This document shows positions 20,884 to 40,516 of a stretch of DNA of 64,000 bases, piece after piece. Made by a program: the position numbers and the translations under genes. Position 1 is the first letter of the stretch, and each line of letters begins with the position of its first letter. The stretch comes from an uncultured Rikenellaceae bacterium (GTDB taxonomy: Bacteria; Bacteroidota; Bacteroidia; Bacteroidales; VadinHA17): the NCBI GenBank assembly GCA_964429295.1, contig CAYSBL010000009.1, positions 1,448-65,447 on the forward strand, written 5' to 3'. The notes under the pieces are model-generated. The model worked only from the letters and a program-made list of their open reading frames with translations. It had not been told where the DNA came from and made no database searches.

Positions 20884-20950
20884 TGTAGGAATTTGAATAA
20901 ACAAATTTAATATAAAATGACAGACAGTGAAAATATTTATAAAAAAACCC

Positions 20951-20989
20951 GCAATCGGTTGCATATTCTATAAAACATTTTTAATTTCG
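20951..20989 (+). promoter_or_regulatory. LacI operator copy 1 overlapping the promoter of the first DUF6807 gene
   Basis: GCAATCGGTTGC (20951-20962, reverse complement of GCAACCGATTGC); its TTG lies 20 nt upstream of TAATTTCG (20982-20989). Confidence 0.8.
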
Positions 20990-21038: not shown

Positions 21039-22310
21039 ATGAATGCTGTTATCACCAACTTCAGTAAAGCAAAATCAGCTGTCGCAGCTTTGCTTCTCCT
21101 GACCGGGACATTCTGCCACGCACAGAAGATTGCATCACTCGAAGTAAATCTGAACAAGCCTGCTTCGGGCCTGAAGATCCCCGTAAGCATCAACCTTGAT
21201 GAGATCACTTATCTTTCTGATACGCTGCTTGCACTGTACGAGACCAGCGACGGAAGAACGGAACCTGTTCCTTTTCAGATAGAACCGGGCAATCCGAGAA
21301 AAATGACATGGCTTGTCGTTTCCGGAAAAGAGGAGAATGAAAAGCACACCTATGCGCTGGAAAGCCAAAAGTCCATATTCCCGTTTACGGTGAATGCAAA
21401 GTTAAAGGATGGGACCCTGCTGATCCATTCGGGAGAAAAAAACCTGCTCCAGTATTTCTTCAAAACTGTCTATCCTCCTGCCGGAGTTGATACTGCCTAC
21501 AGAAGAAGCGGATTCATCCATCCGCTTTGGTCTCCCCATGGCCAGGAACTTACCCGTATCCAGCCTCCTGATCATTTTCATCATTATGGTATCTGGAATC
21601 CATGGACCATGGTGGAATTTGAAGGCGACACCCTCGATTTCTGGAATATAAACTCAAAACAGGCGACGGTGCGCTTCGCTAACTTCGTATCGGTGACGGG
21701 AGGACCCGTTTTCTCCGAGTTCGGAGCTCTCCATGAGCATGTCGTACTGAAAAAGACCGGGATAGACAAGGTGGCAATGAATGAGCTTCAGTGTGTAAGG
21801 GTATATGAACCCGACAAAAACAACGACTGCTTCATTGTTGATTTCAATATTAATATGAACTGCGCCGGTGAAAGCCCATTCAGGATCCTTGAATACCGTT
21901 ATGCCGGACTCGGATGGAGAACAACGCAGAAATGGGACAAAATGAACAGCATGGTTCTTACATCTGAAGGAAATGACAGAAAAAGCGCTGACGGCAGCAA
22001 AGCCAGGTGGTGCATCGTTCAGGGCGAGATTGACGACGACTACGCCGGTGTCGTGATGATGTCGTTCCCTACAAACTACAACCATCCCGAACCTCTGAGA
22101 ATATGGCCTGAGAACCAGTATAACCGGGGCGACATGTTTGCAAACTTCTGCCCTACAAAGGACATGGACTGGGATCTGATCCCGGGTAAAAACTACAACC
22201 TCAGGTACAGGTTTCTGGTTTTCAATGGCCGCTTCGATAAAGAAAAGGCAGAAAGTGCATGGAACTACTTCGCCAATCCGCCCGAAGTTACTGTCCGTAA
22301 GCTAAAGTAA
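21039..22310 (+). CDS. Secreted DUF6807 (PF14100, formerly mislabelled PmoA) protein with N-terminal extension
   Basis: Signal peptide; RSGFIHPLWSP..PDHFHHYGIW, YAGLGWR, HPEPLRIW motifs typical of this family (from memory, not a search). Confidence 0.75.
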   Translation: MNAVITNFSKAKSAVAALLLLTGTFCHAQKIASLEVNLNKPASGLKIPVSINLDEITYLSDTLLALYETSDGRTEPVPFQIEPGNPRKMTWLVVSGKEENEKHTYALESQKSIFPFTVNAKLKDGTLLIHSGEKNLLQYFFKTVYPPAGVDTAYRRSGFIHPLWSPHGQELTRIQPPDHFHHYGIWNPWTMVEFEGDTLDFWNINSKQATVRFANFVSVTGGPVFSEFGALHEHVVLKKTGIDKVAMNELQCVRVYEPDKNNDCFIVDFNINMNCAGESPFRILEYRYAGLGWRTTQKWDKMNSMVLTSEGNDRKSADGSKARWCIVQGEIDDDYAGVVMMSFPTNYNHPEPLRIWPENQYNRGDMFANFCPTKDMDWDLIPGKNYNLRYRFLVFNGRFDKEKAESAWNYFANPPEVTVRKLK

Positions 22311-22362
22311 GCAGTTGATTTGGTTTTTAAATAAATAAAGACTGCTTCCTTGAAAATCACTC

Positions 22363-22400
22363 GCAACCGATTGCACATTGAAAATGTTTTCATAAATTTG
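22363..22400 (+). promoter_or_regulatory. LacI operator copy 2 overlapping the susC promoter
   Basis: GCAACCGATTGC (22363-22374); its TTG lies 19 nt upstream of TAAATTTG (22393-22400). Confidence 0.85.
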
Positions 22401-22553: not shown

Positions 22554-25500
22554 ATGAAAAAACTTCTGCTGCTGATTTTGCTTGCCGGATTCACCATGAA
22601 TCTGGCGGCACAAAAAGTTGTTACCGGCAAGGTGACGGATGAAGAACAAAATCCTCTCGCCGGGGTCTCTGTGCAGGTTAAGGGAACTACCATCGGTACT
22701 CTGACAGATGCCGAAGGTAATTTCCGCCTTCAGATTCCCGTCGATGTAAGGATACTCTCCTTCTCGTTCATCGGGATGAAACCCCAGGAAATCGAGATAG
22801 GCACACAAACCAGTTTTAGTATTGTAATGCAGGTCGATGTCGGGATGCTTGAGGAAGTTATTGTTATCGGTTATGGTACCATAAAGAAAAAAGACCTGAC
22901 AGGCGCTGTCTCCAGGATTGATGCCAATGAACTGGCGACTGAAGCCACCTCAAATGTCACAACCATGCTCAGGGGAGCAATTCCAGGACTGGCTGTGAAC
23001 CTCAGCACGAGCGCCAAAGGCCTTAGCAGTTCAAGCGACATGCTTATCAGGGGAGAAACTTCACTCAGGGCCAGCGACTCAGATCAGGCAAATGCAAATG
23101 CCCCGCTGGTTGTGGTCGACGGAATGATCTACTACGGCGACCTGGCCGATATCAACCCGGTCGACATTGAAACCTTCGACATACTGAAGGATGCATCCTC
23201 GGCAGCAATCTACGGAGCCAGGGCAACCAACGGCGTTATCCTCATCACCACAAAAAGAGGACTGAAGGGTAAACCCGTTATCAACATCAGCACCAGCACA
23301 GGGATGGCATTCATTTCCCATGCTCATTACGAAATGATGAACGGCGATCAGCACATTGCCAGAAGGATTGCAGGTTTCGAGCAGAATGAACGCCGGCAGA
23401 TTACAATCGGTCAGGGCTATTACAACAGCTATGAAAACCTGCCATCCGGCGTGACTCTCGAACAGTGGAAAGCCTATGACGGATCAACCGCTGCAACCGA
23501 CCTCGATGAAGTGTGGCTTTCAAGGATCGGCTTTGCTCCTATAGAAATTAACAACTACAAGGCAGGCAGACTTACCGATTTCAAGCAATACACATGGCAG
23601 AACGGCCTTACCCAGGACTACAACCTGAGCCTTTCAGGAAGTTCCGACGCTGTGTCCTATTACTGGTCACTCGGCTACACCGACAATGAAGGAATAAGGT
23701 ACAATGAGGAATTCAGCACAATTCGTTCAAGGATCAATCTAGATGCCGACGTCACCAACTTCCTTAAGGTTGGCCTGAATGCCCAGATGGCCTTCCGCGA
23801 CGAAAGTCCCATCTCTCCCGGAACCAGTCTCTTCAATACTCCATATTCCTCAATGTTCCAGGAAGATGGTGTAACACTGGAACTTACCCCCTCCGGCTAT
23901 ATCAACGCTCCCAACTTCTGGCTTGAAATGAGGTTCCGCGACCGCTACCGGAAATACAACACACTGAACAGCAAAATATTCGCAACCATTACCCTGCCTC
24001 TTGGCTTCTCCTTCACCTCCGAATTCATACCCAGGTTCAACTGGAACCGCGATTACAACAGCTACTCTTCAGGCCACTTTGAGTGGGCATTGCAGGGCGG
24101 AAGAGCCTCGAGGGCAAATACCACAGTCTTCGAATGGCAGATCAACAACATGCTGAAATGGAACAAAACTATCGGAGATCATGCCTTCGATGCAACCTTC
24201 GTTCAGAACGCCGAGAAATATAATTACTGGTATGAATACATGGAAAGGCAGAACTTCCAGCCTTCCGACGTGCTGGGCTACCACAGGATGCAGGCTGCAA
24301 CAGAGGACGTTTCCCTTACCAGCAACGATGAAACCAGTACGGGCGATGCTCTCCTGGCACGATTGAATTACACATTCAAATCGAGGTATAATCTTACTGG
24401 ATCATTCCGCCGCGATGGCTATTCAGCCTTCGGACAGGCTAACCCAAGGGCCAATTTCTGGTCGGTGGCAGGAGGCTGGACAATCAGCGAGGAAGAATTC
24501 TTCAATATCGACTGGATCGACCAGCTTAAACTGAGATTGTCGTACGGCGTCAACGGAAACCGCGGTGTCGGAATCTATGATGCCCTCTCCAACCTTAACT
24601 CCGGCAAGTTCCTGCTGATTGAAGGCGGAGTTGAACAATACGTTTCACAGCTTTATACCAGCCGTATGGCAAATGCCAACCTGAAATGGGAACGCACATC
24701 AGCCTATAACGGAGGACTCGACTTTGCAGTGCTGAAAGGAAGACTCAGAGGTACTCTGGAGGCTTACTTCTCGATCACCGAAGACCTCATAATCCCGCGC
24801 CAGCTTCCCAATGTAACAGGTTATGCAAGCGTTTTCTCAAACCTGGGCCAGGTCAACAACAAGGGATTTGAATTTACCCTGAATTCAGTGAATATCTCAA
24901 CTCCTGATTTCACCTGGACTTCAGACTTCTCTGTATCACACAACAGCAATAAGATCGTTCATCTGTTCGGGGATTATGTGACAGACGAAGTAACGGGAGA
25001 ACAGAAGGAGGTTGACGATATCACCAATGAATGGTTCATTGGCCATGCAATTGATGAAGTGTGGGATTACAAAAGCCTTGGAATATGGCAGGTATCTGAA
25101 ACTGCGGAAGCCACCGCTTATTCCCGCTCACCCGGTGACTACAAGCTTCTCGATTTCAACGAAGACGGATACTACACCAATGACGACAAACAGTTCCTTG
25201 GCTTCAGAAGGCCTAGAGTAAGACTAAGCCTCAGGAATGACGTGCAGTACAAGAACTGGGAGTTATCGCTTAAAATGTACTCATATCTCGGGCATTTGAA
25301 AGCAGACAACTTCCTGAGAAACAATGAAGCATTCTACGACAGGGGAACCTATTACGATGTTCCATACTGGTCTGCCGATAATCCGGGCAACAAATGGGCA
25401 AGGGTAGAAAGCTACGAGACCAACTTCAATGTATGGGAGAAAAACTCATTCATAAGGCTCGATAATGTGTCGCTTTCATACAATATCCCCAGCAGGGTGC

Positions 25501-25646
25501 TGTCGAAGATTAAAGTAGTAAACTGCAGATTATCCCTGGTTGCCGACAACCCGCTTGTTTATGCTCCCTACTGGTCATGGATGGATCCGGAAAATGATTC
25601 CTATACACCTTCCTATATTTCATTCAAAGTAAACATCACCCTTTAA
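22554..25646 (+). CDS. susC: SusC/RagA TonB-dependent receptor
   Basis: Signal peptide, carboxypeptidase-regulatory-like N-domain, VIGYGT..KKDLTGAV, PLVVVDG, DIETFDILKDASSAAIYGARATNGVILITTK, LKWE. Confidence 0.97.
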   Translation: MKKLLLLILLAGFTMNLAAQKVVTGKVTDEEQNPLAGVSVQVKGTTIGTLTDAEGNFRLQIPVDVRILSFSFIGMKPQEIEIGTQTSFSIVMQVDVGMLEEVIVIGYGTIKKKDLTGAVSRIDANELATEATSNVTTMLRGAIPGLAVNLSTSAKGLSSSSDMLIRGETSLRASDSDQANANAPLVVVDGMIYYGDLADINPVDIETFDILKDASSAAIYGARATNGVILITTKRGLKGKPVINISTSTGMAFISHAHYEMMNGDQHIARRIAGFEQNERRQITIGQGYYNSYENLPSGVTLEQWKAYDGSTAATDLDEVWLSRIGFAPIEINNYKAGRLTDFKQYTWQNGLTQDYNLSLSGSSDAVSYYWSLGYTDNEGIRYNEEFSTIRSRINLDADVTNFLKVGLNAQMAFRDESPISPGTSLFNTPYSSMFQEDGVTLELTPSGYINAPNFWLEMRFRDRYRKYNTLNSKIFATITLPLGFSFTSEFIPRFNWNRDYNSYSSGHFEWALQGGRASRANTTVFEWQINNMLKWNKTIGDHAFDATFVQNAEKYNYWYEYMERQNFQPSDVLGYHRMQAATEDVSLTSNDETSTGDALLARLNYTFKSRYNLTGSFRRDGYSAFGQANPRANFWSVAGGWTISEEEFFNIDWIDQLKLRLSYGVNGNRGVGIYDALSNLNSGKFLLIEGGVEQYVSQLYTSRMANANLKWERTSAYNGGLDFAVLKGRLRGTLEAYFSITEDLIIPRQLPNVTGYASVFSNLGQVNNKGFEFTLNSVNISTPDFTWTSDFSVSHNSNKIVHLFGDYVTDEVTGEQKEVDDITNEWFIGHAIDEVWDYKSLGIWQVSETAEATAYSRSPGDYKLLDFNEDGYYTNDDKQFLGFRRPRVRLSLRNDVQYKNWELSLKMYSYLGHLKADNFLRNNEAFYDRGTYYDVPYWSADNPGNKWARVESYETNFNVWEKNSFIRLDNVSLSYNIPSRVLSKIKVVNCRLSLVADNPLVYAPYWSWMDPENDSYTPSYISFKVNITL

Positions 25647-25657
25647 AATTACCGGAC

Positions 25658-27535
25658 ATGAAAAAGATATTTTTAACGATAGTATTCCTGACAACTCTGG
25701 TTTTTATAGGTCCGAGGTGTTCCGAAGATTTTCTCAAACCTGAACCTTTATCATTCTATGCCCCTGAAAACACTTTTGTTAATGCCGCCGGATTCAATGC
25801 TGCGCTTATTGCATGCCTGCGAAATGCAAGGCATGAAATGTACGGAGATACTCCTCCCTTTATTTCAGAGGGTATCTTTTCAGACATAGCGGTGGAGGGC
25901 ACTACTGATAAAACCGGGATCCATATGGATATGCCGGCTGTAATACTGCCTGATGCAAACTTCAACTACGGCGACGTGACAAAGCTGGGCAACTACTGGA
26001 CCGAAGCCTACAACAGGATCAAGTATGCAAATGTGGTAATTTCAAGGATCGACAATGCAGAATGGAAAAGCGATGCCGAACGAAACAATATACTTGGCAA
26101 AGCTTACTTTCACAGGGCGAATGTCTATTACAGGCTTGTCCATCAGTTCGGCGATGTGCCTCTTATTCTTGAAGAGATAACCCAGCCAAGGCTGGATTTC
26201 TATTCCTGCACAAGGGAAAGTATACTCCAGAAATGCAAAAAGGACCTCGACTTTGCAGCCCAGTGGGTTGATGCCGATGCTCCCATCGGAGACATAAACA
26301 AGGCAGCCGTCAACCATCTTCTTACCAAGGTCAACATGTCGCTGCTGGAATTCGATGATGCCATAGCCTCCGCAAGCGCAGTCATAAATGACGGGATACA
26401 CGCCCTGATGACCACACGCTTCGGCTCGTACAAGAATGATCCGGCACACGACATTATCTGGGACCTTCACCAGGAGGAGAACAAGGCTCTCGCCGAAAAC
26501 ACTGAAACGATATGGCTGTTTGTATGCAGTGAGACAATGACTGAAGACGGTGCAAGCGAGAAACTCAGAATAATGCGACAGGCGGTTCCGTACTGGGGCG
26601 GCGCAGGAAAAGTAAAAACTCCTACAGGCCAGACGGGAACAACCGACCAGCCGGGAGGAGCTCTGGTGGGCGGATTTCCTGTTGAAATAAACCAGGTCGG
26701 TATGTATGGCAGAGGCATCGGACGTCTTCGCCCCAGCCCGTGGTACCAGCATGGCCTGTGGGATGATCCAAACGACATGCGTCATAAATATCCCAACTGG
26801 ATGAGGATGGAAGACCTGGTTTACAATGTCCCCGGACTGAAGGCAAACGGCGACCCGTACTACAACCAGCATCTGCAACTTTTCGATGCGGGAGGAGGAA
26901 TCCTGTGCACCGATACCATAAGATCATGGTTCGACTGGCCACATTATAAACTGTATGTAATCGACCCGACCGACAACACACCCGACGGTGGCTATGGCGA
27001 CTGGTACGAAATGCGGCTTGCAGAAACATACCTCCTGAGAGCCGAAGCCTATTTCTGGAACGATCAGCCTGATCAGGCGGCAGCCGATCTTAACGCAGTC
27101 AGGACACGTGCCGGATGTGCCCCCTATACAACCGACCAGATAAATATCGGTACCATCCTGGATGAAAGGGCCAGGGAACTGTATTACGAGGAGAAACGGA
27201 AAACAGAACTGACTCGTATTGCCTACATACTTGCAAAAACAGGAAAACCCTGTTATAACGGGAAAACATACAGTATGGGAAATTTCGGGACAGATAATTT
27301 CTGGTATGACAGGGTCATCGAAAAGAACGTCTTCTACAGGGATAATGTAAAGGCTCCGTTCTATAATTACCGGATAGCCCCGTATATTGTCCTTTGGCCC
27401 GTTCTCTCATCCGCAATAAATGCAAACAGCCTCGGACATATTAACCAGAATTTCGGATATCCGGGATATGAATCAAATGTTACTCCCTGGAAATGGGTCG
27501 ATGGAGAAGGCGAAGGATCTGTTGTTGAACAATGA
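25658..27535 (+). CDS. susD: SusD/RagB surface lipoprotein
   Basis: Cys after the signal peptide (RCSEDFL), FHRANVYYRLVHQFGDVPL, RLAETYLLRAEA, NAVRTRAG, ILDERARELYYE; follows susC. Confidence 0.96.
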   Translation: MKKIFLTIVFLTTLVFIGPRCSEDFLKPEPLSFYAPENTFVNAAGFNAALIACLRNARHEMYGDTPPFISEGIFSDIAVEGTTDKTGIHMDMPAVILPDANFNYGDVTKLGNYWTEAYNRIKYANVVISRIDNAEWKSDAERNNILGKAYFHRANVYYRLVHQFGDVPLILEEITQPRLDFYSCTRESILQKCKKDLDFAAQWVDADAPIGDINKAAVNHLLTKVNMSLLEFDDAIASASAVINDGIHALMTTRFGSYKNDPAHDIIWDLHQEENKALAENTETIWLFVCSETMTEDGASEKLRIMRQAVPYWGGAGKVKTPTGQTGTTDQPGGALVGGFPVEINQVGMYGRGIGRLRPSPWYQHGLWDDPNDMRHKYPNWMRMEDLVYNVPGLKANGDPYYNQHLQLFDAGGGILCTDTIRSWFDWPHYKLYVIDPTDNTPDGGYGDWYEMRLAETYLLRAEAYFWNDQPDQAAADLNAVRTRAGCAPYTTDQINIGTILDERARELYYEEKRKTELTRIAYILAKTGKPCYNGKTYSMGNFGTDNFWYDRVIEKNVFYRDNVKAPFYNYRIAPYIVLWPVLSSAINANSLGHINQNFGYPGYESNVTPWKWVDGEGEGSVVEQ

Positions 27536-27720: not shown

Positions 27721-29094
27721 ATGAAAAGACGAATTTTCATCTCCAGGACTGCTCAGGCTGCAGCAGGATCGCTGATTCTGCCGACTATAGTTCCCTCTTC
27801 GGTTATAGGCAGGAATCCCCCAAGCGAAAAGATCAACATAGGATGGATAGGCTGCGGGAGGCAGGGAAGAGGCGATATCATGGGTACTATGAGATTCGAC
27901 ACTGCTATGGTGGTAGCCGCTGCCGATGTAGATTCTAAAAGGGTGGCCCTTGGCAAGCAGATGGTAGAAGGCTTCTATTCAAAGAAGACAGGAAACAGCA
28001 ATTATGTCAATGTAAAAACATACGGCGACTACAAGGAACTGCTGCTCGACAAATCGATAGATGCGGTAGTGATTACCACACCCGACCACTGGCACTCACA
28101 GCCCGCCATCGAAGCTGCACTTGCCGGCAAGGATATCTATCTTGAAAAACCTACTTCGCTTACCATTACCGAAGGAAGGCTTCTGAGCGATGTGGTTAAG
28201 AAAACAAAGGTCATCCTGCAGGTTGGAACCCAGCAGCGCTCAAGTCCTCAGTGGAGGATCGCCGCCGAACTGGTCAGGAACGGAAGAATAGGCAAGCTTC
28301 ATACTGTCAAAATTGGTCTGCCCGGGGACCCGGCCGGACCGGAGGCCCCTGAAATGCCGGTTCCGCCTAACCTCAATTACGACATGTGGCTGGGATCAAC
28401 ACCCGAAGTCTATTACACCGAAATCCGCGTCCATCCTCAGAAGGATTTCGATCGCCCGGGCTGGCTGAGATGTGAGCAATTTGGCGCCGGCATGATCACA
28501 GGCTGGGGACAGCATCACTTCGACTCGGCTGCCTGGGGCATGGATACAGAACTCACCGGACCGGTATCGATCGAGGCAGTGGCTCAATTTCCCAAAGCCG
28601 GACTGTGGGATGTTCACGGCGATTTTATGTCAATAGCAGAATACGCCAACGGGGTGACACAGCTTACAAGCGGAAGTTATCCCAACGGAGTAAGATATGA
28701 AGGAACAGAGGGATGGATCTTTGTAACACGAGGTAACTACAGGGCTACCGACAGTGATCCGATAGTCCAGGCTCAAAACACCAAAGCACTCGATGCCAGC
28801 GATCCAAAGATCCTTACTTCAGTGATCGGACCCAACGAGATCCACCTCTATGAAAGCAGTGACCAGGCAGGCAACTGGCTCGACTGTATTAAATCGAGAA
28901 AGGAACCCATCTCACCGGTTGAAATCGGCCACAGGGCCTGCACGGTATGTCTTGTCACCCATATAGCAATGAAACTGGGAAGAAGACTGAAATGGAATCC
29001 TGAAACTGAAAAGTTTGTGGGCGACGATGAGGCCAACAGCATGCTTTCAAGGCCACAGAGAGCCCCCTACGGCACAAATTACATCAAATTGTAG
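27721..29094 (+). CDS. Tat-exported Gfo/Idh/MocA oxidoreductase
   Basis: KRRIF twin-arginine signal, IGCGRQG Rossmann motif, TPDHWH, YLEKP, QVGTQQRS. Confidence 0.92.
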   Translation: MKRRIFISRTAQAAAGSLILPTIVPSSVIGRNPPSEKINIGWIGCGRQGRGDIMGTMRFDTAMVVAAADVDSKRVALGKQMVEGFYSKKTGNSNYVNVKTYGDYKELLLDKSIDAVVITTPDHWHSQPAIEAALAGKDIYLEKPTSLTITEGRLLSDVVKKTKVILQVGTQQRSSPQWRIAAELVRNGRIGKLHTVKIGLPGDPAGPEAPEMPVPPNLNYDMWLGSTPEVYYTEIRVHPQKDFDRPGWLRCEQFGAGMITGWGQHHFDSAAWGMDTELTGPVSIEAVAQFPKAGLWDVHGDFMSIAEYANGVTQLTSGSYPNGVRYEGTEGWIFVTRGNYRATDSDPIVQAQNTKALDASDPKILTSVIGPNEIHLYESSDQAGNWLDCIKSRKEPISPVEIGHRACTVCLVTHIAMKLGRRLKWNPETEKFVGDDEANSMLSRPQRAPYGTNYIKL

Positions 29095-29209: not shown

Positions 29210-30118
29210 ATGAAAAGACTTATAAGCGGCACCCTCGCAATCCTGGCGGGAAGCTTTTTAATCATGCCTGTATCCGCCGCCAGACTCACAGCAGAGAAAA
29301 CAGGTTCCAAAATCAATGTGAGCATCGACGGAAAATTCTTCACCAGCTACATCTTCACGGAAGATGAGAAATACCCCTTCTTCTATCCGGTCAACGGACC
29401 GGTCACCGGAGGCTCGGTAACATCCATGAGAAATGCAGTTTACCCCCACCATACATCCCTTTTCTTCGGATGCGACATGGTTAACGGGGGAAATTACTGG
29501 CAGGAAGGACTTGACCGGGGCAGAATAATCTCGGTGAATGCCCGGATTGAAAAAGAAGGAGGCGATACTGTTGTTATAACAGACGAATGCATATGGAGCC
29601 GCCCGGGTGCAGTCTCGCCCATGAAGGACACACGCAGGTACATAATAACCGCACCATCGGCAGACAAAATTGTCATTGACGTCGAGATCACCATGATGAC
29701 ACTGATGGATGTCCGCATCAGGAAAACAAACCACTCACTTTTCAGCGCCAGGCTGGCAGCCGACATCTCGGTTACCAACGGAGGCACCATGATAAACGCC
29801 GAGGGGGCAAGCAGCGAAAAGGATACTTTCGGAAAGAGATCCCCCTGGATCGACTTCAGCGGCTCAAGAGGAAATACAATTGAAGGTCTTGCCATTATGC
29901 AGCATCCTTCAAATCCCTGGTACCCGGCCCCCTGGTTCACACGCGATTACGGATTCATCTCCCCCACACCGATGTACTGGCCTGAAAATGGTGAAGAGAC
30001 TTTTATTAAGGACGGAACCAGACTGGTTCTTAAGTACAGGGTTATTGTCCATTCAGGCGACCATAAACAGGCTGATATAGCCGGCGAGTTCAAAAAATAC
30101 ATTTCCGGTACGTTATAA
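29210..30118 (+). CDS. Secreted DUF6807 protein (second paralog)
   Basis: Signal peptide; KYPFFYPV, YPHHTSLFFG, HPSNPWYPAPWFTRDYG. Confidence 0.75.
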   Translation: MKRLISGTLAILAGSFLIMPVSAARLTAEKTGSKINVSIDGKFFTSYIFTEDEKYPFFYPVNGPVTGGSVTSMRNAVYPHHTSLFFGCDMVNGGNYWQEGLDRGRIISVNARIEKEGGDTVVITDECIWSRPGAVSPMKDTRRYIITAPSADKIVIDVEITMMTLMDVRIRKTNHSLFSARLAADISVTNGGTMINAEGASSEKDTFGKRSPWIDFSGSRGNTIEGLAIMQHPSNPWYPAPWFTRDYGFISPTPMYWPENGEETFIKDGTRLVLKYRVIVHSGDHKQADIAGEFKKYISGTL

Positions 30119-30206: not shown

Positions 30207-30893
30207 CTAATGGGTTTTTCTATAAAGGCAGTCTGTCCTGTGGCATGAAATGCAAGGAAAAGGATCAAAGCTTACATTCCTTCCAATACCTATCATCCCG
30301 CTTACCGATTTTTCAGGACGCATTAAAGCCGAGTCATTAAGGCTTATCCCGCAGTTATTATCGGGCATCAGCCTGAACAGGGCATGCTGATCAGAAACAT
30401 CCCACCCGCAATATCCTGGACTGTAGCGGTTTGTAACCTTGTTGCCGGATTCCCCGGCAGCTTTGCTTACTTCCTGCAGGAGCAGGCCGGATGCTCTTTC
30501 CGCAATCTCACTTCCGATAATATCGTAGATGTAAGAAGCAAGCGGATCGCCGTCCTCCATCGACTTCCCCGCGAGTTTTTCAGTACCGGGACCTGCAGTG
30601 CAAAGGAAAATGGCGATGGATTCTGCCAGGCTGAGCTGTTTGAAAACAATGTCTTTAAGATTGAATACAACATCGCTCAATGTGACTGTTTTTTCTTCAT
30701 CATTCCATTCCCCGACGGGAAAGACCCTATACTCAGCTTTTACAGTGCATACCCGGGAAGCATTATTCAGCAGTTCCGTTATCAATCCTGAAAATTCATG
30801 ATGAGGATAACCGTCCCTCTCCGCCAGAACCCGGCCGATGCGGTTCTCATCGACCCCAAGATCCGAAAAATCATATTCCAGAGAAGTAATCAT
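30207..30893 (-). CDS. Stand-alone MetH reactivation-domain-like protein
   Basis: FLCTAG, RYSPGYCGW, M.PEKSVSGMIG and C-terminal CxxCxxxxCxYR; ATGA overlap with the upstream gene. Confidence 0.8.
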   Translation of the reverse strand: MITSLEYDFSDLGVDENRIGRVLAERDGYPHHEFSGLITELLNNASRVCTVKAEYRVFPVGEWNDEEKTVTLSDVVFNLKDIVFKQLSLAESIAIFLCTAGPGTEKLAGKSMEDGDPLASYIYDIIGSEIAERASGLLLQEVSKAAGESGNKVTNRYSPGYCGWDVSDQHALFRLMPDNNCGISLNDSALMRPEKSVSGMIGIGRNVSFDPFPCISCHRTDCLYRKTH

Positions 30894-32332
30894 GACTGAT
30901 CAAGTCCCGCTTCACGTACAATCCGTCCCACTACTTCTTCCCATCCGAGCGACATCAGGTGTACGCCGTTGATCCCCTTTTTTTGTTTCAGCGATGCGAT
31001 AAGTTCGAGAGCTATTGCAATTCCTTCCTCACTGGCGCCGTCGCCCGCCTTCTCCATTCTCCTGAGTATCCTGTCAGGCAGATATACTCCGGGAACCTTT
31101 TCATGCAGATAAAGAGCAGCCTTATAACTTTTAAGCGGAACCAGTCCGGCCAGGATGCTTACCTTGCCGAGCACATTCCTCCTGTCGAGCTGCTCCAGCC
31201 AGGGATCGAGCTTTTCCGGTTCGAAAATTATGTTGGTCTGGAAAAACTGTGCTCCCGCGTTTATTTTTTTCTGATCCCTTATTGCCTGGAGTTCAGGATC
31301 GAGTGCGCAAGGAGTGGTGGCAGCTCCAAGAAAGTACTTCGGAGGATGTTTCATCTTTCTCCCGTCGAGGTAGATTCCCTCGTCCCTCATTTTCCTGAGT
31401 ATCCAGAGCATCTGGACCGAATCGAGGTCATATATGTTCATATTACTGGCAGGGGGTGGTCCGACAACCGGACTGTCGCCGGTGACACAAAGAATGTTCC
31501 TGATCCCGAACTGACCCGCAGCTATGGCATCTCCCTGCAATGAGATGCGTGTTGCATCGCGGGCTGCAATCTGAAAGACCGGCTCTGCATTCATATCAGC
31601 GGCAACCTTGCAGCAGGCGAGTGCCGACATCTTCGGAATGGCCGACGAAGCATCCGTGAAATTTATGGCGTTAACATAGGGTCTGACAAGGTCAATGTCA
31701 TTCTTTAGTTTCCCGGAATCCGAACTAAGCGGCGGTGTGACTTCAGTGGCAACCACGAAACGGCCTTCCCTCAGAGATCTCTCGAGCTCCGACGCAGGCT
31801 CAGTATAGGCCGGAGGATGGTAATCTGAATCGCCGTTCCACCATGCAGGCTGCCTGACTGTCATGAATACCGAGTCCCATACCTGTTTTTTAGCTTCCCT
31901 GTCGTGCGAAAACAAAGATCTGAAAAATCTTCCGGGTCCCACTATTCCTATCTGTCTGCCTACATCCGCCCATGTTTCGGTACCGGCCCTGTTCCAGTCG
32001 AGCGGAGGAAGAACCTCGAGGAGTGTCTCCTGGCGCTTGATCTTCCTTGCCCGGTTATAGATGGCATGCCACACGCATCTTCGTGTCGGATCGACATAAC
32101 AGCGGCCTTCGGGAGTAACTCCGCCGCAGGGCCCGTTCCTGAGCCCTTTCGGACACTCCATACAACAGATAAAGGCTGTTTCCTGCAGAAGGCAGTTGCC
32201 GCACATCCTGCATCCCCAAATCGGACCTTTTACAATTATCTCTATATACTCACGGAACCGTTTCCCTAAAGACTCCCTTTTGAACGGATAAAAACGGGGT
32301 TGCCAACGGCGGGCAGGCTTGATACCAGACAT
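30890..32332 (-). CDS. metF: MetV-MetF fusion methylenetetrahydrofolate reductase
   Basis: Cys-rich N-domain CRMCGNC..CPKGLRNGPCGG..CYVDPTRRCVW (MetV/MTHFR_C type), followed by a MetF barrel (TEVTPP, NFTD, NILCVTGD, AGAQFFQT). Confidence 0.88.
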   Translation of the reverse strand: MSGIKPARRWQPRFYPFKRESLGKRFREYIEIIVKGPIWGCRMCGNCLLQETAFICCMECPKGLRNGPCGGVTPEGRCYVDPTRRCVWHAIYNRARKIKRQETLLEVLPPLDWNRAGTETWADVGRQIGIVGPGRFFRSLFSHDREAKKQVWDSVFMTVRQPAWWNGDSDYHPPAYTEPASELERSLREGRFVVATEVTPPLSSDSGKLKNDIDLVRPYVNAINFTDASSAIPKMSALACCKVAADMNAEPVFQIAARDATRISLQGDAIAAGQFGIRNILCVTGDSPVVGPPPASNMNIYDLDSVQMLWILRKMRDEGIYLDGRKMKHPPKYFLGAATTPCALDPELQAIRDQKKINAGAQFFQTNIIFEPEKLDPWLEQLDRRNVLGKVSILAGLVPLKSYKAALYLHEKVPGVYLPDRILRRMEKAGDGASEEGIAIALELIASLKQKKGINGVHLMSLGWEEVVGRIVREAGLDQS

Positions 32333-32364
32333 ATCCAGAGGTATTAATTCTTAAGGGAAGGTAC

Positions 32365-33207
32365 TCAGGAATTGCGGCTTTGATAATATTCCACAAACCT
32401 TATTGCAAAGTCGTCCCTCCCCAGAACAAGATCGGCAGCCCGGGCAGCAGCAGTTATTTTTTCAGGATTTGCTATCGGGCATGTAACTCCGCAATAAACG
32501 GCAAGAGTCAGGAAAGCCGTGTTGAGCGACTCCCTGTCGGGCAGACCGAATGATATGTTACTGGCCCCCATGGTTATATTCTGACCAAGCTTCCGGTTAA
32601 CCAGCCTGATAGTTTCCAGCGTCACCAGGCAGGCCCGGGGATCGGCGCTGACTGCCATGGCCAGAGGATCGGCAATGACATCTTCAGCCTTCATTCCCGC
32701 TGAAACAGCCCTTTCAATTATCCTTTCAATTATTGCCACACGCTTTTCGGGATCATTGGTGATACCGTCATCATCCATGCATAATCCTATAATGGCCGCT
32801 CCGTATTCGCTTGCAAAAGGGATCAGGGCCTTAAGGGATTCTTCCTTCCCGTTAACCGAATTGATAAGGCATCTCCCGGCGGAAACCTTAAGTGCAGCTT
32901 CAATGGCTGAAGGATTGGGAGAATCGAGACACAGCGGGATATCAAAGTTATCCTGGATAGCCGACACAACTTCCGGAAGAAGCTTCACATCATCAACACC
33001 CGGATAACCCACATTTACGTCGAGAACATCGGCACCTGCATTTATCTGGCTGGCCGCCAGTTCAAGAACATAGGAAAAATCTCCCTCCTGAAGCGATGAA
33101 ACCAGTTTCTTACGGCGGGTCGGGTTTATCGATTCGCCAATAATAACAACAGGACCACCGGTTTCAATGACAACCTCCCTGGTCCTGCCTGATAGTAATG
33201 TCTTCAT
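32365..33207 (-). CDS. Pterin-binding methyltetrahydrofolate:corrinoid methyltransferase (AcsE / MetH pterin module)
   Basis: IIGESINPT, QINAGADVLDVNVG, LCLDS, LINSVNG, GASNISFGLP motifs. Confidence 0.9.
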   Translation of the reverse strand: MKTLLSGRTREVVIETGGPVVIIGESINPTRRKKLVSSLQEGDFSYVLELAASQINAGADVLDVNVGYPGVDDVKLLPEVVSAIQDNFDIPLCLDSPNPSAIEAALKVSAGRCLINSVNGKEESLKALIPFASEYGAAIIGLCMDDDGITNDPEKRVAIIERIIERAVSAGMKAEDVIADPLAMAVSADPRACLVTLETIRLVNRKLGQNITMGASNISFGLPDRESLNTAFLTLAVYCGVTCPIANPEKITAAARAADLVLGRDDFAIRFVEYYQSRNS

Positions 33208-33209
33208 GA

Positions 33210-33878
33210 TTAAACTGCAAACTGTTTCAGATAATTAACTGCACCCTGGGGATCGGGTGAATAGAAATCGGCTCCTATCTTTTCGCAATATTCCATCGTA
33301 ACCGGAGCTCCGCCGACAAGGATCCTGACCGCGGGATGCTTCTCCTTCAGAACTGCAACGGTTTTCTTCATATTTTCCATAGTGGTGGTGAGAAGAGCGG
33401 ACAGACCTACAAAAGCGCCCGGATTGTTCTCAATAGCTTTCAGAAATTTATCGGTGCTCACATCAACACCCAGGTCGATGATCTCCCATCCGCCTCCTTC
33501 TATCATCATCGAGACCAGGTTCTTCCCTATGTCGTGAAGGTCACCCGCTACGGTGCCAATGATAAATTTTCCCTTTCGCTTTGTCTCGCCCGACTGAAAG
33601 AACGGCTTCAGATGCTTCATCGAGCTGTTCATGGCCTTGGCTGCCATCAGCATCTGGGGAACATATATCTCCTTCCTGCTGAACCTCTCACCAACAACTG
33701 CCATCGCCGGGATCAGGGCTTCGTCGAGAATCCTGGCCGGACCAAGCCCATTGTCGATAGCCTGCCTGGTTAGCTCATCCGCTCCATCACTCCCCCTCAT
33801 GTCGGGCGGGTAAGGTGAAGCCTTGTCTGTTTTGCCTGACTCAACACATCGTGCGATCCGGGCCAGTATATCTTCCAT
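33210..33878 (-). CDS. Corrinoid (B12-binding) methyl-carrier protein
   Basis: Cap domain (LIPAMAVVGERF..YVPQMLMAAKAM), DLHDIGKN (DxHxxG), LSALLTTTM, VGGAPV. Confidence 0.94.
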   Translation of the reverse strand: MEDILARIARCVESGKTDKASPYPPDMRGSDGADELTRQAIDNGLGPARILDEALIPAMAVVGERFSRKEIYVPQMLMAAKAMNSSMKHLKPFFQSGETKRKGKFIIGTVAGDLHDIGKNLVSMMIEGGGWEIIDLGVDVSTDKFLKAIENNPGAFVGLSALLTTTMENMKKTVAVLKEKHPAVRILVGGAPVTMEYCEKIGADFYSPDPQGAVNYLKQFAV

Positions 33879-33946
33879 AAAACTACAGATTGATGAAGTT
33901 ACCTGTTATAACCTTTAAGCTTTTTACTGCACGAAAATAATAAATT

Positions 33947-33985
33947 CAAAAGTAATTAATATAATTTGTTTATGCAACCGATTGC
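33947..33985 (-). promoter_or_regulatory. LacI operator copy 3 overlapping the promoter of the corrinoid operon
   Basis: GCAACCGATTGC (33974-33985). On the minus strand its TTG (33977-33975) lies 20 nt upstream of a perfect TACTTTTG -7 box (33954-33947). Confidence 0.85.
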
Positions 33986-34040
33986 AGAAATGTTTTTATT
34001 AAAGATTTTAACGCTGCCGATCTGTCTCCTTACTATAACA

Positions 34041-34117
34041 CCCCCTTTCCCGTTTCCCCCAGGGGGGAAAGGCTTTGCCTGCTCCTTCCCCCCTGGGGGA
34101 AGGTCAGGGAAGGGGGT
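34041..34117. repeat. GC-rich REP-like double-hairpin element, copy 1
   Basis: CCCCCTTTCCCGTTTCCCCCAGGGGGGAAA ... CCTTCCCCCCTGGGGGAAGGTCAGGGAAGGGGG; related to 41859-41992. Confidence 0.8.
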
Positions 34118-34225
34118 AAAGCACACAACCGGGGAAAGGAATAAAACAGGTTTGAATTGAATTCAGAATGTAATACAAGTGACGCCTTAAAAATTATTAT
34201 CTTGCCCTCATATATAACCAAAGAT

Positions 34226-35749
34226 ATGAAAACAATCTCCTTCATTCTCTGTATGCTCCTTTCAGGGGTCATATCCTCCCAGGCTCAATCCACCGGAATC
34301 TTTGAGCGCAGCGCCGACATTGGCAACCCTGCAATCAAAGGTTCAGCCGTTTATAATACTTCTGACCAGTCATATTCCCTGAAGGGATCAGGTTACAACA
34401 TCTGGTTTGAAAGAGATGAATTCAGGTATGTATTCAATCAGATCGAAGGTGACTTCATTCTCACTGCAAGTTTCCGTTTCGAGGGCGACGGGACCGATCC
34501 GCACAGGAAAACGGGATGGATGATCAGGGCTTCGGAAGATGAGAGCTCTCCTCATATTTCAGCCGTGCTGCATGGCGATGGTCTGACAGTCATGCAATGG
34601 CGCGATTTTACAGGCGGTGAAATGAAGGACCCGGATGATGAACTGTTTGCAAAGGGCTCCGGGTACGAGATAATCCAGCTTGAACGTGCAGGTGAAGTTT
34701 TTTTCATGAGAGCAGCCGTTCCCGGAAAGCCCTTCGAGGAGATCGGCTCATACCAGATGGCAAACATGCCCGACAGGGTGCTTGCAGGATTGTTCATATG
34801 TTCGCATAATCCCGAAGTGACTGAACAGTCGACGGTATGGAATGTAAGGATTGACAAACCCGTGAGGGACAATTACAACGCTGCAATGGACGGAGTGGTC
34901 GGATGCCGCCTGGAAACAATGAACGTACTCGACGGAAAAAGAATGGTCATCTGGGAAAAACAGGGACGCTTCGAAGCTCCCAACTGGATGCCCGACGGAA
35001 AACAATTGCTTTTTAACATGGATGGACTTTTATACAGGATCCCGGTCACCGGAGGTCAGATAAGCCAGCTGAACACCGGTACCGTAACAAGAAACAATAA
35101 TGATCATGGAATATCTTTCAATGGGAAACTTCTTGCAATAAGCAGTTCAAAGGATGATGCGGCAGGAAGGGGTTCTGCCGTATACGTGGTAAAGCTGAAG
35201 GGCGGAGAACCAAAGCTTGTCACACCCGAGACGCCATCCTACTGGCACGGATGGCATCCAAACAACAAAGAGGTGATCTATGTTGCACAGCGCGGCGGAA
35301 AAAGAGTCTACAACATCTACAGGAATTCAATAAAGGGAGGAAAGGAGGTGGCCCTCACCGATATTCCGGAAGGGGAACATGTTGACGGGTGCGAATATTC
35401 ACCCGATGGAAACTACATCTACTATAACGGCAGTCATTCGGGAAACATGCAGTTATGGAGAATGAAATCCGACGGGACCGGCAGGGAACAGCTTACCTTC
35501 GACGATTGTAAAAACTGGTTTCCTCATATCTCTCCCGACGGGAAATGGATAGCATATATTGCATTCCCTCCCGAAATCGAGAAGAACAGCCACCCCTCCT
35601 ACAAAAGAGTTACACTCCGGCTGATGCCTGCCGCCGGTGGGGAGCCAAGAGTTATAGCCTATCTTTACGGCGGTCAGGGAACCATTAATGTTCCTTCCTG
35701 GTCGCCTGACAGCAAGCAGATTGCATTCGTGAGCAACTCGGGTTTGTAA
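34226..35749 (+). CDS. Secreted TolB-like PD40 beta-propeller protein with N-terminal beta-sandwich
   Basis: Signal peptide from ATG 34226; EAPNWMPDG, DHGISFNG, CEYSPDG, FPHISPDG, PSWSPDS repeats. Confidence 0.8.
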   Translation: MKTISFILCMLLSGVISSQAQSTGIFERSADIGNPAIKGSAVYNTSDQSYSLKGSGYNIWFERDEFRYVFNQIEGDFILTASFRFEGDGTDPHRKTGWMIRASEDESSPHISAVLHGDGLTVMQWRDFTGGEMKDPDDELFAKGSGYEIIQLERAGEVFFMRAAVPGKPFEEIGSYQMANMPDRVLAGLFICSHNPEVTEQSTVWNVRIDKPVRDNYNAAMDGVVGCRLETMNVLDGKRMVIWEKQGRFEAPNWMPDGKQLLFNMDGLLYRIPVTGGQISQLNTGTVTRNNNDHGISFNGKLLAISSSKDDAAGRGSAVYVVKLKGGEPKLVTPETPSYWHGWHPNNKEVIYVAQRGGKRVYNIYRNSIKGGKEVALTDIPEGEHVDGCEYSPDGNYIYYNGSHSGNMQLWRMKSDGTGREQLTFDDCKNWFPHISPDGKWIAYIAFPPEIEKNSHPSYKRVTLRLMPAAGGEPRVIAYLYGGQGTINVPSWSPDSKQIAFVSNSGL

Positions 35750-40489: not shown

Positions 40490-40516
40490 AGGTCCTTATG
40501 TATTAGCTATTACGTT

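Follow-up and report, generated by a model that had tools for sequence, protein, structure and literature searches.

A four-gene corrinoid methyl-transfer cassette associated with xylan-utilisation loci of Bacteroidales may carry xylan-derived methyl groups

Introduction

Bacterial O-demethylases, such as those of Desulfitobacterium hafniense DCB-2, Acetobacterium and Moorella (Mtv), consist of a methyltransferase (MT1), a separate B12 carrier protein (CP), a pterin-binding methyltransferase (MT2) and an activating enzyme, and we take the URO-D/MtaA-like methyltransferases to be the MT1 family of these systems. The modules of methionine synthase (MetH) can also occur as separate proteins, T. 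maritima MetH and TM0269 being one such split case. A three-part split MetH is established in Phaeobacter inhibens (PMC5764234). The MtgB/MtgC/MtgD system of the aerobic alphaproteobacterium Ruegeria pomeroyi, whose methyl donor is glycine betaine acting through an MttB-family MT1, has as its core a carrier standing alone plus a folate methyltransferase working in both directions, and this core can either connect with a catabolic MT1 or serve methionine synthesis (PMC12478193). Acetobacterium woodii metVF is described as joining a Cys-rich MetV-like domain with a MetF domain (PMC10472528). Finally, marine Bacteroidota encode in their porphyran loci a cytochrome P450 that demethylates 6-O-methyl-D-galactose (PMC6292453, PMC10033563); this demethylating function accompanies the polysaccharide-utilisation genes because sugars bearing methyl ethers are otherwise barred from catabolism. 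Here we describe a cassette that resembles each of these systems in part, found in a 64-kb window (the whole stretch of DNA analysed) from an anaerobic Bacteroidales genome.

Results

The cassette spans positions 30207-33878 and comprises four ORFs, all on the minus strand:

33210..33878, minus strand: CP, corrinoid (B12) carrier, 222 aa (PF02607 + PF02310, Pfam)
32365..33207, minus strand: MT2, methyl-THF:corrinoid methyltransferase, pterin-binding TIM barrel, 280 aa (PF00809; NF005719)
30890..32332, minus strand: MetVF, fused MetV-like Fe-S domain and MTHFR, 480 aa (PF12225 + PF02219)
30207..30893, minus strand: ACT, stand-alone short MetH-type (SAM-binding) reactivation domain, 228 aa (PF02965)

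Read directly from the sequence, CP and MT2 are separated by 2 bp (TAA-tc-ATG) and MT2 and MetVF by 32 bp, while MetVF and ACT share an ATGA overlap. These junctions, together with the ORF calls and Pfam/NCBIfam matches, bear out the four-gene operon proposed in an earlier note on this DNA. The same note had the window lacking both a homocysteine-binding module and an MT1, and this also held: a Pfam scan of essentially all window ORFs of at least 94 aa recovered neither a homocysteine-binding module nor a recognisable MT1, and six-frame HMM searches of the window gave no match to URO-D or PF02574.

CP combines a cap (B12-binding_2) with a Rossmann B12-binding domain, the DxHxxG motif being visible in the alignment, and is 72-94% identical among the related loci that have it. 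In PDB sequence searches its closest entries were 1Y80 from Moorella (163 bits), 7XCN and the D. hafniense O-demethylase CP 4JGI (PMC3727330), with MetH (1BMT) ranking below all three. MT2 scores 263.7 bits on NF005719 (methyl-THF:corrinoid/FeS-protein methyltransferase), passing the NCBIfam cutoff of 259, and is closest to the D. hafniense O-demethylase MT2 (4O0Q, 138 bits), MeTr (2E7F) and T. maritima MetH (1Q7M) ranking lower. Both proteins score marginally better against O-demethylase/acetogen proteins than against MetH. MetVF is one polypeptide with DUF5981/PF12225 (MetV-like) at aa 40-114 and MTHFR/PF02219 at aa 183-476; eight Cys between positions 41 and 86 are invariant in 12 homologues, and the fusion is present in all 120 of its 120 best homologues. 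It differs from the acetogen MetVF in being fused into a single chain and in having no Rnf/Hdr partners or other Wood-Ljungdahl genes nearby.

ACT gives a partial Met_synt_B12 match in Pfam, and its sole PDB sequence match is TM0269 (1J6R), which is also the best fold match of its AlphaFold model (pLDDT 87; TM 0.72/0.82). In a fold search of this model against the PDB all 19 of 19 significant matches were MetH activation (reactivation) domains, so that the predicted fold is of the MetH reactivation type. Across 32 homologues R156-x-S-P-G-Y161, C162, C181, C214, C217 and C222 are invariant, and the C-terminus carries a conserved CxxCxxxxC. We therefore rejected ACT as an equivalent of the acetogen O-demethylase activator, which is described as ATP-dependent (PMC6739815); ACT is instead a SAM-binding protein of the MetH/TM0269 type. 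The idea that the cassette corresponds equally to MetH modules or to the parts of an acetogen O-demethylase accordingly breaks down at the fourth gene. The methionine-synthase type of ACT counts against a catabolic reading.

The surroundings of the cassette contain the following features:

16841..18166, minus strand: xylA, xylose isomerase (NF003998, 679 bits against a cutoff of 459)
18257..19735, minus strand: xylB-like FGGY kinase (best match TIGR01312 XylB, below cutoff, 290 vs 380)
19837..20883, minus strand: LacI-family repressor (PF00356 + Peripla_BP_1/3; probable start 20883, ORF reaching 20964)
20950..20963: operator O2, in the divergent LacI/long-DUF6807 promoter region
21039..22310, plus strand: DUF6807 protein, long form, signal peptide (PF14100), operator upstream
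22362..22375: operator O3, 178 nt upstream of SusC
22554..27535, plus strand: SusC (22554-25646) and SusD (25658-27535), outer-membrane pair (Pfam)
27721..29094, plus strand: GFO/IDH/MocA oxidoreductase, periplasmic, with twin-arginine signal (Pfam; N-terminus MKRRIFISRTAQAAAG)
29210..30118, plus strand: DUF6807 protein, short form, signal peptide (PF14100), convergent with ACT
33947..33954, minus strand: candidate Bacteroidetes -7 promoter box TACTTTTG (consensus TAnnTTTG), 18 nt downstream of O1
33973..33986: operator O1 (TGCAATCGGTTGCA), 94 nt upstream of the CP start
34226..35749, plus strand: secreted TolB-like beta-propeller protein (PD40; Pfam/NCBIfam), divergent from CP
44857..45777: metA (HTS), 10,979 bp from the CP start

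The NCBIfam matches of the LacI protein are RbsR/GntR/CcpA-like models, every one below its cutoff. The GFO/IDH/MocA protein is distantly like glycoside 3-dehydrogenase, its best match (NF058561, BT_2158 family) being far below cutoff, and the signal peptide of the PD40 protein follows Met-24 of the ORF. Since these two and both DUF6807 proteins carry export signals, they cannot serve the cytoplasmic carrier. Among 72 xylan-type sources the PD40 gene adjoins the cassette in 46 and the short DUF6807 gene in 35.

The window holds exactly three copies of the LacI-type operator TGCAAYCGRTTGCA, one each upstream of the corrinoid operon, the LacI gene and SusC. The 12-mer GCAATCGGTTGC likewise occurs exactly three times in the 64 kb, always in a promoter region (CP; LacI/DUF6807; SusC), a count reached in 0 of 100 shuffles. 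The helix-turn-helix of LacI starts about 33 residues inside the ORF and the in-frame ATG at 20883 yields a normal N-terminus (MKTTRDVTIYDVAK...), which places O2 67 nt upstream of the start. The same operator lies within 300 nt upstream of CP (at 47-128 nt) in 26 of 62 related xylan-type Bacteroidales loci, as against none of 4 non-xylan loci; it is absent in the other 36. Across 87 sources, 59 of 62 operator matches with at most one mismatch were intergenic, preceding CP, LacI, SusC, DUF6807, GH115 or GH10, and a site equivalent to O3 is found upstream of SusC in L007, L011, L013, L016, L025, L029, L037, L038 and L056. Judging by this conserved shared operator, the cassette appears to be under the same sugar-type repressor as the xylan/xylose-utilisation locus. 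Searches for a SAM or cobalamin riboswitch found none, a permissive threshold included.

The 80 genome loci all belong to a single order, and their MetVF proteins share 63-88% identity with that of the window. Elsewhere the cassette lies inside xylan loci (SusC-SusD-GH10-cassette, with GH115, GH67, GH3 or CE15 nearby): the order is SusC>SusD>GH10>CP... in L029 and L032 and SusC>SusD>CP...GH3>CE15 in L056, and in L083 GH3/GH10/MFS_2 are inserted between MT2 and MetVF. In 12 loci xylB is the next gene after ACT, in the same orientation and 9-240 nt away, and ACT>xylB>xylA is found with gaps down to 9-15 nt (L043, L061). A xylan or xylose gene is present within 10 kb of the cassette in 54 of the 72 sources, and GH115, GH67 or CE15 in 11. 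Housekeeping genes (acyltransferase, DAG kinase, HAD) are syntenic with the cassette too, which means that relatedness by itself accounts for some of the conservation around it. An MT1 of any known family was absent from the window and from every xylan-type locus, and no homocysteine-binding module was linked to the cassette in the 72 sources.

Closely related paralogous cassettes have, by their gene content, a complete demethylase layout, carrying the URO-D/MtaA-like methyltransferases that recall O-demethylases. That of L071 reads URO-D> AraC< CP MT2 MetVF ACT URO-D> Fhs>, the URO-D protein after ACT being MtaA-like (4AY7, E 1.4e-18), and that of L084 is accompanied by two URO-D genes, an MFS sugar transporter and glycoside hydrolases. 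In each of two MAGs, whose bins are possibly chimeric, a xylan-type cassette occurs together with a cassette of the other kind (fen_982, L060 + L071; Co_metawrap_2229, L076 + L031), and the xylan-type copy is thus not their only MT2-MetVF. The division into xylan-type and other cassettes is shallow and based on an unbootstrapped NJ tree: MetVF is 69% identical across the two groups, compared with 71% among the xylan-type members.

Discussion

The reading that we favour, and hold about evenly likely to be right, is that the cassette belongs to the xylan regulon and carries xylan-derived methyl groups from the corrinoid to CH3-THF and on to CH2-THF. An MT1 encoded outside the locus would load the methyl of a xylan-derived methyl ether onto Co(I) CP, the donor most likely being 4-O-methyl-D-glucuronate freed by GH67/GH115, or alternatively ferulate or lignin-derived methoxy-aromatics freed along with xylan. 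The pterin-binding MT2 would then hand the methyl from CP to tetrahydrofolate, and the fused MetV-MetF would oxidise CH3-THF to CH2-THF, thereby feeding the C1 pool; in the paralogous cassettes formate-THF ligase would take the path on to formate, with a gain of ATP. ACT, with its SAM-binding domain and conserved Cys cluster, would rescue oxidised Co(II) CP by reductive methylation, taking the place of the ATP-dependent activator of acetogen O-demethylases. The sugar-type regulation and catabolic direction advanced in the earlier note are now much better supported, by the LacI operator common with the SusC/D locus, the embedding among xylan and xylose genes, and the paralogues with URO-D and Fhs; since the MT1 is missing, however, catabolism is a function that we infer. 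A literature search found no earlier case of a corrinoid system demethylating an aliphatic methyl ether of a sugar. The separate B12 carrier and pterin-binding MT2 are shared with the O-demethylases, from which the locus differs in having no MT1, in the fused MetVF inside the operon, in its non-acetogenic Bacteroidales host, in its sugar repressor and SusC/D setting, and in a presumed substrate that is polysaccharide-derived.

Although unlikely, a dual use deserves consideration, in which CP, a bidirectional MT2, ACT and MetVF would work in catabolic demethylation as well as in methionine synthesis, the methyl passing to THF or, via a stand-alone homocysteine (Hcy) methyltransferase, directly to homocysteine. 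The MtgC/MtgD core of Ruegeria is a precedent (PMC12478193), although its operon has neither MetVF nor a MetH-type ACT. A stand-alone homocysteine gene acting with these proteins was what the earlier note would have counted against catabolism, and such genes (~294 aa) are indeed widespread in related Bacteroidales. A separate conserved Bacteroidales module contains one, URO-D< Hcy-MT> CP'> ACT'>; it has no pterin-binding gene of its own and in L086 (Lentimicrobiaceae) adjoins an MT2>MetVF> pair; that arrangement, and the MT2-MetVF pairs without CP or ACT in L057 and L059, indicate that these proteins probably serve methionine synthesis in some genomes. However, the module brings its own CP' and ACT', also in L086, so window-type CP and ACT are not needed. 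CP' of the module is only 61-63% identical to window CP (57-68% for CP versus CP' overall, possibly enough for cross-talk), whereas the carriers of this module (module B) share 75-80% identity among themselves. Moreover, a search for genomes holding both the module and a xylan-type cassette led only to L086 and established no such co-occurrence, a second MT2-MetVF pair exists in at least two MAGs, and an essential biosynthetic step would be oddly placed under xylan-dependent repression.

It is quite unlikely that the cassette is a purely anabolic split methionine synthase plus MTHFR, in which MetVF would make CH3-THF, MT2 load CP and ACT reactivate it, with the homocysteine subunit elsewhere and the xylan neighbourhood mere inherited synteny. 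As in the split forms of T. maritima and Phaeobacter, the pterin-binding, cap plus B12 and reactivation modules (three of the four of MetH) are separate proteins, here beside the enzyme making their substrate, and ACT has the TM0269 fold and RxxxGY motif; yet the homocysteine-binding module is linked neither in the window nor in the 72 sources, comes with CP' and ACT' where it does occur, and CP and MT2 match proteins other than MetH slightly better. The metA gene, which the earlier note rightly placed about 11 kb away, lies 6-11 kb from the cassette in the window and close relatives, but no Met, SAM or B12 riboswitch was found, and a conserved LacI operator is instead common to the cassette, SusC and GH genes. 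Unrelated housekeeping genes are likewise syntenic, whereas the cassette has entered xylan loci by independent moves and its paralogues carry URO-D and Fhs.

We regard it as improbable that there is no functional xylan link, the operator matches and neighbourhood being by-products of a compact clade-specific gene order and the cassette serving another corrinoid reaction. Its confinement to one order, the similarity of MetVF and the want of an operator upstream of CP in over half of the loci would fit, but the operator's recurrence at a set distance before CP in 26 loci, the shuffling result and the repeated independent insertions of xylan genes beside or within the cassette argue against it. 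Least credible is a reductive C1 sink in pentose fermentation (CH2-THF to CH3-THF to CP to a non-homocysteine acceptor, away from folate): acetogen MetVF-type reductases are described as reversible (PMC10472528, PMC10284823) and the cassette is probably co-transcribed with xylB-xylA in some loci, but the acceptor enzyme is absent, with no ACS/CODH or thiol methyltransferase in any locus, and the presence of Fhs beside the paralogues is at least equally consistent with an oxidative, ATP-yielding direction.

Returning to the catabolic reading, the cassette would, like the porphyran P450, be a dedicated demethylation function encoded with a polysaccharide-utilisation locus, although the two are not homologous and the P450 needs O2 and yields formaldehyde. 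Our findings suggest an oxygen-free handling of plant-xylan methyl groups in these Bacteroidales; if this is true, the window cassette would, unlike the porphyran enzyme, work independently of O2 and conserve the methyl group as CH3-THF.

Gene content of the corrinoid cassette

The four minus-strand genes at 30207-33878, with the 2-bp, 32-bp and ATGA junctions reported in the earlier note, were recovered by ORF calling and by reading of the sequence itself, and Pfam and NCBIfam searches upheld their assignment as a corrinoid (B12) carrier (CP), a pterin-binding methyl-THF:corrinoid methyltransferase (MT2), a MetV-MetF protein (MetVF) and a reactivation-like protein (ACT):

33878-33210, minus strand: CP, 222 aa; Pfam B12-binding_2 (PF02607) and B12-binding (PF02310)
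33207-32365, minus strand: MT2, 280 aa; Pfam Pterin_bind (PF00809), E 7.7e-28
32332-30890, minus strand: MetVF, 480 aa; MetV-like DUF5981 (PF12225) and MTHFR (PF02219) in one polypeptide
30893-30207, minus strand: ACT, 228 aa; partial Met_synt_B12 (PF02965) match

In gene order the junctions are TAA-tc-ATG (the 2-bp gap), the 32-bp gap and the ATGA overlap; metA, which the same note placed about 11 kb off, lies at a measured distance of 10,979 bp. CP contains a DxHxxG motif, seen as GDLHDIG in its alignment to 1Y80 and conserved in 70 sequences. MT2 scores above the curated NCBIfam cutoff of a methyl-THF:corrinoid/Fe-S-protein methyltransferase model (263.7 versus 259 bits), and its TIGR02082 match spans MetH positions 337-592. 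The MetV part of MetVF has 8 invariant Cys residues, and residues 1-182 roughly match a MetV subunit in length; homologues of the protein number in the thousands, and the same fusion occurs in 120 of 120 among the matches listed. Protein lengths and Pfam coverage leave nothing unexplained in the four proteins, which rules out an extra hidden domain.

The earlier note had held that the cassette could correspond equally to MetH modules or to the parts of an acetogen O-demethylase, a statement that fails for the fourth gene, ACT being specifically MetH-type in both fold and motif. Modelled with AlphaFold from 32 homologues, ACT gave a confident structure (pLDDT 87, pTM 0.85), and all 19 significant PDB fold matches of this model were MetH reactivation domains, the best being the stand-alone TM0269 of T. 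maritima (1J6R; TM 0.72/0.82 for the model). The R-x-S-P-G-Y motif (RxxxGY) is invariant. The activator of the acetogen O-demethylase is described in one account as ATP-dependent (PMC6739815). We also observed invariant or near-invariant Cys at ACT residues 98, 162, 181, 214, 217 and 222, including a C-terminal CxxCxxxxC in a region of low model confidence. It is speculation that the invariant set (C162, C181, C214, C217 and C222) forms a metal or Fe-S site, possibly for electron input.

Like bacterial O-demethylases, the cassette has a separate CP and MT2 and would work like one, and the MT2 and CP of the D. hafniense O-demethylase are the closest structures to its own; in contrast to these MT1-CP-MT2-AE systems, its locus has neither MT1 (the substrate-specific methyltransferase that loads methyl onto CP) nor an ATP-dependent activator. 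With MetH it has in common the pterin-binding, cap plus B12 and reactivation modules, including the reactivation fold, but it lacks the homocysteine (Hcy) module, both in the window and in the xylan-type loci (related cassettes in xylan/xylose settings), as well as any detectable MetH-type control. Both modules of a MetVF-type MTHFR are present, fused instead of forming two subunits.

A putative LacI regulon in a xylan/xylose locus

From ACT towards lower coordinates lie a short DUF6807 gene (signal peptide; convergent with ACT), a GFO/IDH/MocA oxidoreductase gene (twin-arginine signal), SusD and SusC, and beyond SusC a long DUF6807 gene (signal peptide), a LacI-family repressor with HTH and sugar-binding domains (Pfam), a xylB-like kinase and a xylose isomerase (679 bits; cutoff 459). 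Divergent from CP is the gene for a secreted TolB-like propeller (PD40). The Sus pair has an operator in common with the cassette:

22554-27535: SusC/SusD pair (Pfam)

That operator is a 14-bp palindrome, TGCAAYCGRTTGCA, found at three promoter regions in the window and recurring across related loci. The LacI-type palindrome TGCAATCGGTTGCA lies 94 nt upstream of the CP start, a second copy is upstream of the probable LacI start and common to the divergent DUF6807 gene, and the third is 178 nt upstream of SusC. The 12-nt core has exactly three copies in the window, a number reached in 0 of 100 shuffles. Between the CP operator and CP, 18 nt past the operator, is a candidate Bacteroidetes -7 box, TACTTTTG; a sigma-70 promoter and terminator scan was uninformative for this Bacteroidetes genome. 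Riboswitch control was rejected: at gathering thresholds Rfam gave only a tRNA across the 64 kb and no SAM or cobalamin riboswitch, and at a permissive threshold the stretch 33700-34300 yielded nothing beyond hairpin families matching a GC-rich palindrome by chance. A LacI repressor together with palindromic putative operators in the target promoters is what defines a LacI regulon, here predicted from sequence. The host is a member of the Bacteroidota, and with a SusC/SusD pair that shares its operator the cassette is a predicted accessory part of a polysaccharide-utilisation locus.

Several other features of the region deserve mention. The GC-rich nested palindrome has a similar counterpart (34040-34117 and ~41905-41978; arms TTCCCCCAGGGGGGAA / TTCCCCCCTGGGGGAA in the CP/PD40 intergenic copy), the second lying between GH172 (DUF2961) and DcuC-like transporter genes; both resemble REP- or MITE-type repeats. 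Exported GFO/IDH/MocA proteins are paired with DUF6807 or with a xylose-isomerase-like TIM-barrel and GH172 at 27721-30118, 21039-22310 and 38172-41749, and such pairings are kept beside the cassette in relatives. They are reminiscent of oxidative glycoside cleavage by the BT_2158 family pathway, but every score is far below its cutoff. DUF6807 itself is largely uncharacterised; the literature searched refers to it once, in passing. The region also encodes three proteins of the peroxiredoxin family, one Fur-family regulator and one OsmC-like protein (11604-12146, 15516-16223, 47169-47915, 14938-15399 and 16377-16766); many relatives keep Prx, ferritin, Fur and OsmC genes in synteny downstream of xylA. 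A 556-aa ORF at 48086-49756 has no Pfam match and no conserved counterpart beside the cassettes of the other loci. An arabinose-utilisation cluster (1-4976, minus strand) comprises a class II aldolase-family gene (possibly araD), an NrtR/AraR-like NUDIX regulator, araA and a sodium:solute symporter, and with GH127, GH43, GH2, GH116 and GH92 elsewhere in the window marks a plant-glycan-rich region.

Conservation of the xylan setting in relatives

Scanning one genome per species yielded 80 related loci, nearly all belonging to uncultured Bacteroidales from fen, sediment, soil and digester sources. Their ORFs were called and clustered and key families confirmed with Pfam/NCBIfam; independent gene calls with precomputed Pfam agree. 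The order CP>MT2>MetVF>ACT (arrowheads give direction) is nearly universal; the flanking genes vary, but along a consistent line. In 12 loci xylB-xylA directly follow ACT on the same strand, with gaps down to 9-15 nt, and in many others a GFO/DUF6807 block, SusC/D and LacI lie between, as in the window. GH10, GH115, GH67, GH3 and CE15 genes are all found adjacent to cassettes: a GH10 xylanase immediately precedes CP in L029, L032 and L035 (after SusC-SusD in the first two), L056 reads SusC>SusD>CP...ACT>GH3>CE15 (glucuronyl esterase), and in L083 a GH3-GH10-MFS_2 block sits between MT2 and MetVF. Adjoining LacI are GH115 and GH67 alpha-glucuronidases, an SDR and an enolase-superfamily dehydratase, possibly a mannonate dehydratase. 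Many of the 72 xylan-type sources are truncated; 54 have a xylan/xylose gene within 10 kb, and 11 have GH115, GH67 or CE15. Part of the synteny is phylogenetic only (acyltransferase, DAG kinase and HAD genes).

The operator is conserved as well. Matches with at most one mismatch were intergenic in 59 of 62 cases, upstream of CP, LacI, SusC, DUF6807, GH115 or GH10. Among 62 xylan-type loci, 26 had the operator no more than 300 nt from the start of CP, versus 0 of 4 other loci. Where SusC-SusD precede CP (L029 and L056) the operator is upstream of SusC, and operator-free loci have another conserved promoter-like block in common. Heparinase II/III-like (PF07940) genes, a uronate-directed lyase fold, lie directly downstream of ACT in two relatives (L052:8430-10328 and L065:4014-6098), beside a cassette suspected of handling 4-O-methyl-glucuronate.

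End modules and activator

Pfam detected no PF02574 homocysteine-binding Zn module in essentially every ORF of the 64-kb window, and six-frame phmmer with a Bacteroidales Hcy methyltransferase gave matches only in four other loci (L086-L089), with none in the window or any xylan-type locus. MT1 families, including URO-D/MtaA-like proteins, were likewise absent from the window and all xylan-type loci by Pfam and six-frame HMM searches, so that both approaches bear out the earlier claim that neither end module is present in the window. No RACo/RamA-type ATP-dependent activator domain was found in the window ORFs scanned by Pfam. Neighbouring genes were rejected as a hidden MT1 because their products are exported (the PD40 propeller and the two DUF6807 proteins by Sec signals, GFO by a twin-arginine signal). 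Singleton cassette neighbours elsewhere were also rejected as methyltransferases (transposase, AAA ATPase, heparinase II/III-like, MFS_2, GH95, TauE and others).

Paralogous cassettes and a homocysteine module

Nine loci separate from the xylan-type group in a MetVF neighbour-joining tree without bootstrap, the split being shallow (69% identity between groups versus 71% inside the xylan-type group). One xylan-type and one other copy occur together in each of two MAGs (fen_982 and Co_metawrap_2229). Several of the nine encode the parts that are missing here. Three CP-MT2-MetVF(-ACT) paralogues lie under an AraC-type regulator:

L071:5805-15000
L084:1939-16197
L081:6828-13000

These come with MtaA-like URO-D, Fhs (formate-THF ligase), an MFS sugar transporter and GH20/GH123/GH28/GH172. 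L071 reads URO-D> AraC< CP MT2 MetVF ACT URO-D> Fhs>, the URO-D after ACT resembling the methylcobalamin:CoM methyltransferase MtaA (4AY7, E 1.4e-18), and in L084 two URO-D genes, an MFS sugar transporter, GH20, GH28 and GH172 surround AraC< CP MT2 MetVF. The same cassette type therefore occurs with a canonical MT1-family enzyme and Fhs in a sugar context, and the AraC-type loci are candidates for complete methyl-sugar demethylation and oxidation loci.

A second arrangement, the conserved Bacteroidales unit URO-D< Hcy-MT> CP'> ACT'> (module B), was found near an MT2>MetVF> pair in L086 (Lentimicrobiaceae), where the stand-alone homocysteine S-methyltransferase scores 236 bits to PF02574. The layout is repeated in three further examples, without a pterin-binding gene:

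L086:1918-5579
L087:6802-10338
L088:6643-10465
L089:1381-5055

The module encodes an Hcy methyltransferase of ~294 aa, a type abundant as stand-alone proteins in Bacteroidales, a 224-aa CP' and a MetH-type ACT'; its URO-D has a weak likeness to true uroporphyrinogen decarboxylases and none to MtaA. CP' and the window CP are paralogous lineages, because they are 61-63% identical whereas module-B carriers are 75-80% identical among themselves. Module B appears to be a multi-part methionine synthase with its own carrier, reactivase and URO-D, which matters wherever methionine auxotrophy is predicted from genome content.

Proposed function and alternatives

The xylans of hardwoods and grasses contain 4-O-methyl-glucuronic acid, and methoxylated ferulate is found on arabinoxylans. 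The cassette is a predicted member of a LacI-controlled glucuronoxylan/xylose regulon, the rest of which covers uptake, side-chain removal, xylose catabolism and probably glucuronate catabolism, and the methyl ether of 4-O-methyl-glucuronate is the sole part of the polymer lacking an assigned enzyme in it. On chemical reasoning, this ether would block a later aldolase step of uronate catabolism.

We rate a xylan-linked catabolic role for the cassette at about even chances. A postulated MT1 encoded elsewhere would methylate CP to CH3-Co(III)-CP, MT2 would move the methyl to CH3-THF, MetVF would convert this to CH2-THF, and ACT would return CP to Co(I) by SAM-dependent reductive methylation. This is the most economical mechanism; a dedicated, reversible MetVF would let the methyl be oxidised, beyond use in methionine alone, and the Fhs of the paralogues is consistent with an ATP-yielding oxidation to formate. 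Against such a role stand the missing MT1 and the lack of a precedent, in the literature searched, for corrinoid demethylation of an aliphatic ether. Ferulate and lignin fragments freed with xylan are alternative donors, their aryl methyl ethers being chemically easier. That the 4-O-methyl group (or another carbohydrate methyl ether) is itself transferred to folate in a cobalamin-dependent manner, by an MT1 whose family would be new or so far unrecognised, with a MetH-type, possibly metal-cluster SAM-dependent reactivase, is a tentative proposal that we regard as doubtful.

Among the alternatives, a dual-use core like MtgC/MtgD of Ruegeria (PMC12478193) is unlikely overall. MT2-MetVF pairs without CP or ACT nevertheless exist in two loci (L057 and L059), and the L086 arrangement, with an Hcy module near MT2-MetVF, suggests that in some genomes this pair feeds the homocysteine module, which makes dual use a rival to be taken seriously. 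A purely anabolic split MetH (PMC5764234) is improbable, with no Hcy module linked in the window or the xylan-type loci, no SAM or cobalamin riboswitch detected and a LacI-type operator instead. The remaining readings together are about as improbable.

The nearest functional analogue of the xylan-linked cassette is the P450 demethylation of 6-O-methyl-galactose in marine Bacteroidota, which is O2-dependent (PMC6292453, PMC10033563), and this O2-requiring type was the only polysaccharide-locus sugar demethylation found in the literature searched (PMC6292453). In the same literature we found no account of how strict anaerobes handle xylan methyl groups, no paper linking corrinoid methyltransferases with xylan loci or 4-O-methyl-glucuronate, and nothing that describes a corrinoid/folate cassette within a xylan locus. 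If true, the 4-O-methyl proposal would be the first case of an aliphatic sugar ether demethylated through a corrinoid, and an O2-free counterpart of the P450 sugar demethylases. A B12- and folate-dependent cassette serving xylan loci would place a MetH-type reactivation domain at work outside methionine synthase. Anaerobic Bacteroidales of fens, sediments and digesters would then unblock methylated uronic acids and capture the methyl as C1 units with no release of methanol, tying plant-polymer degradation to cobamide demand.
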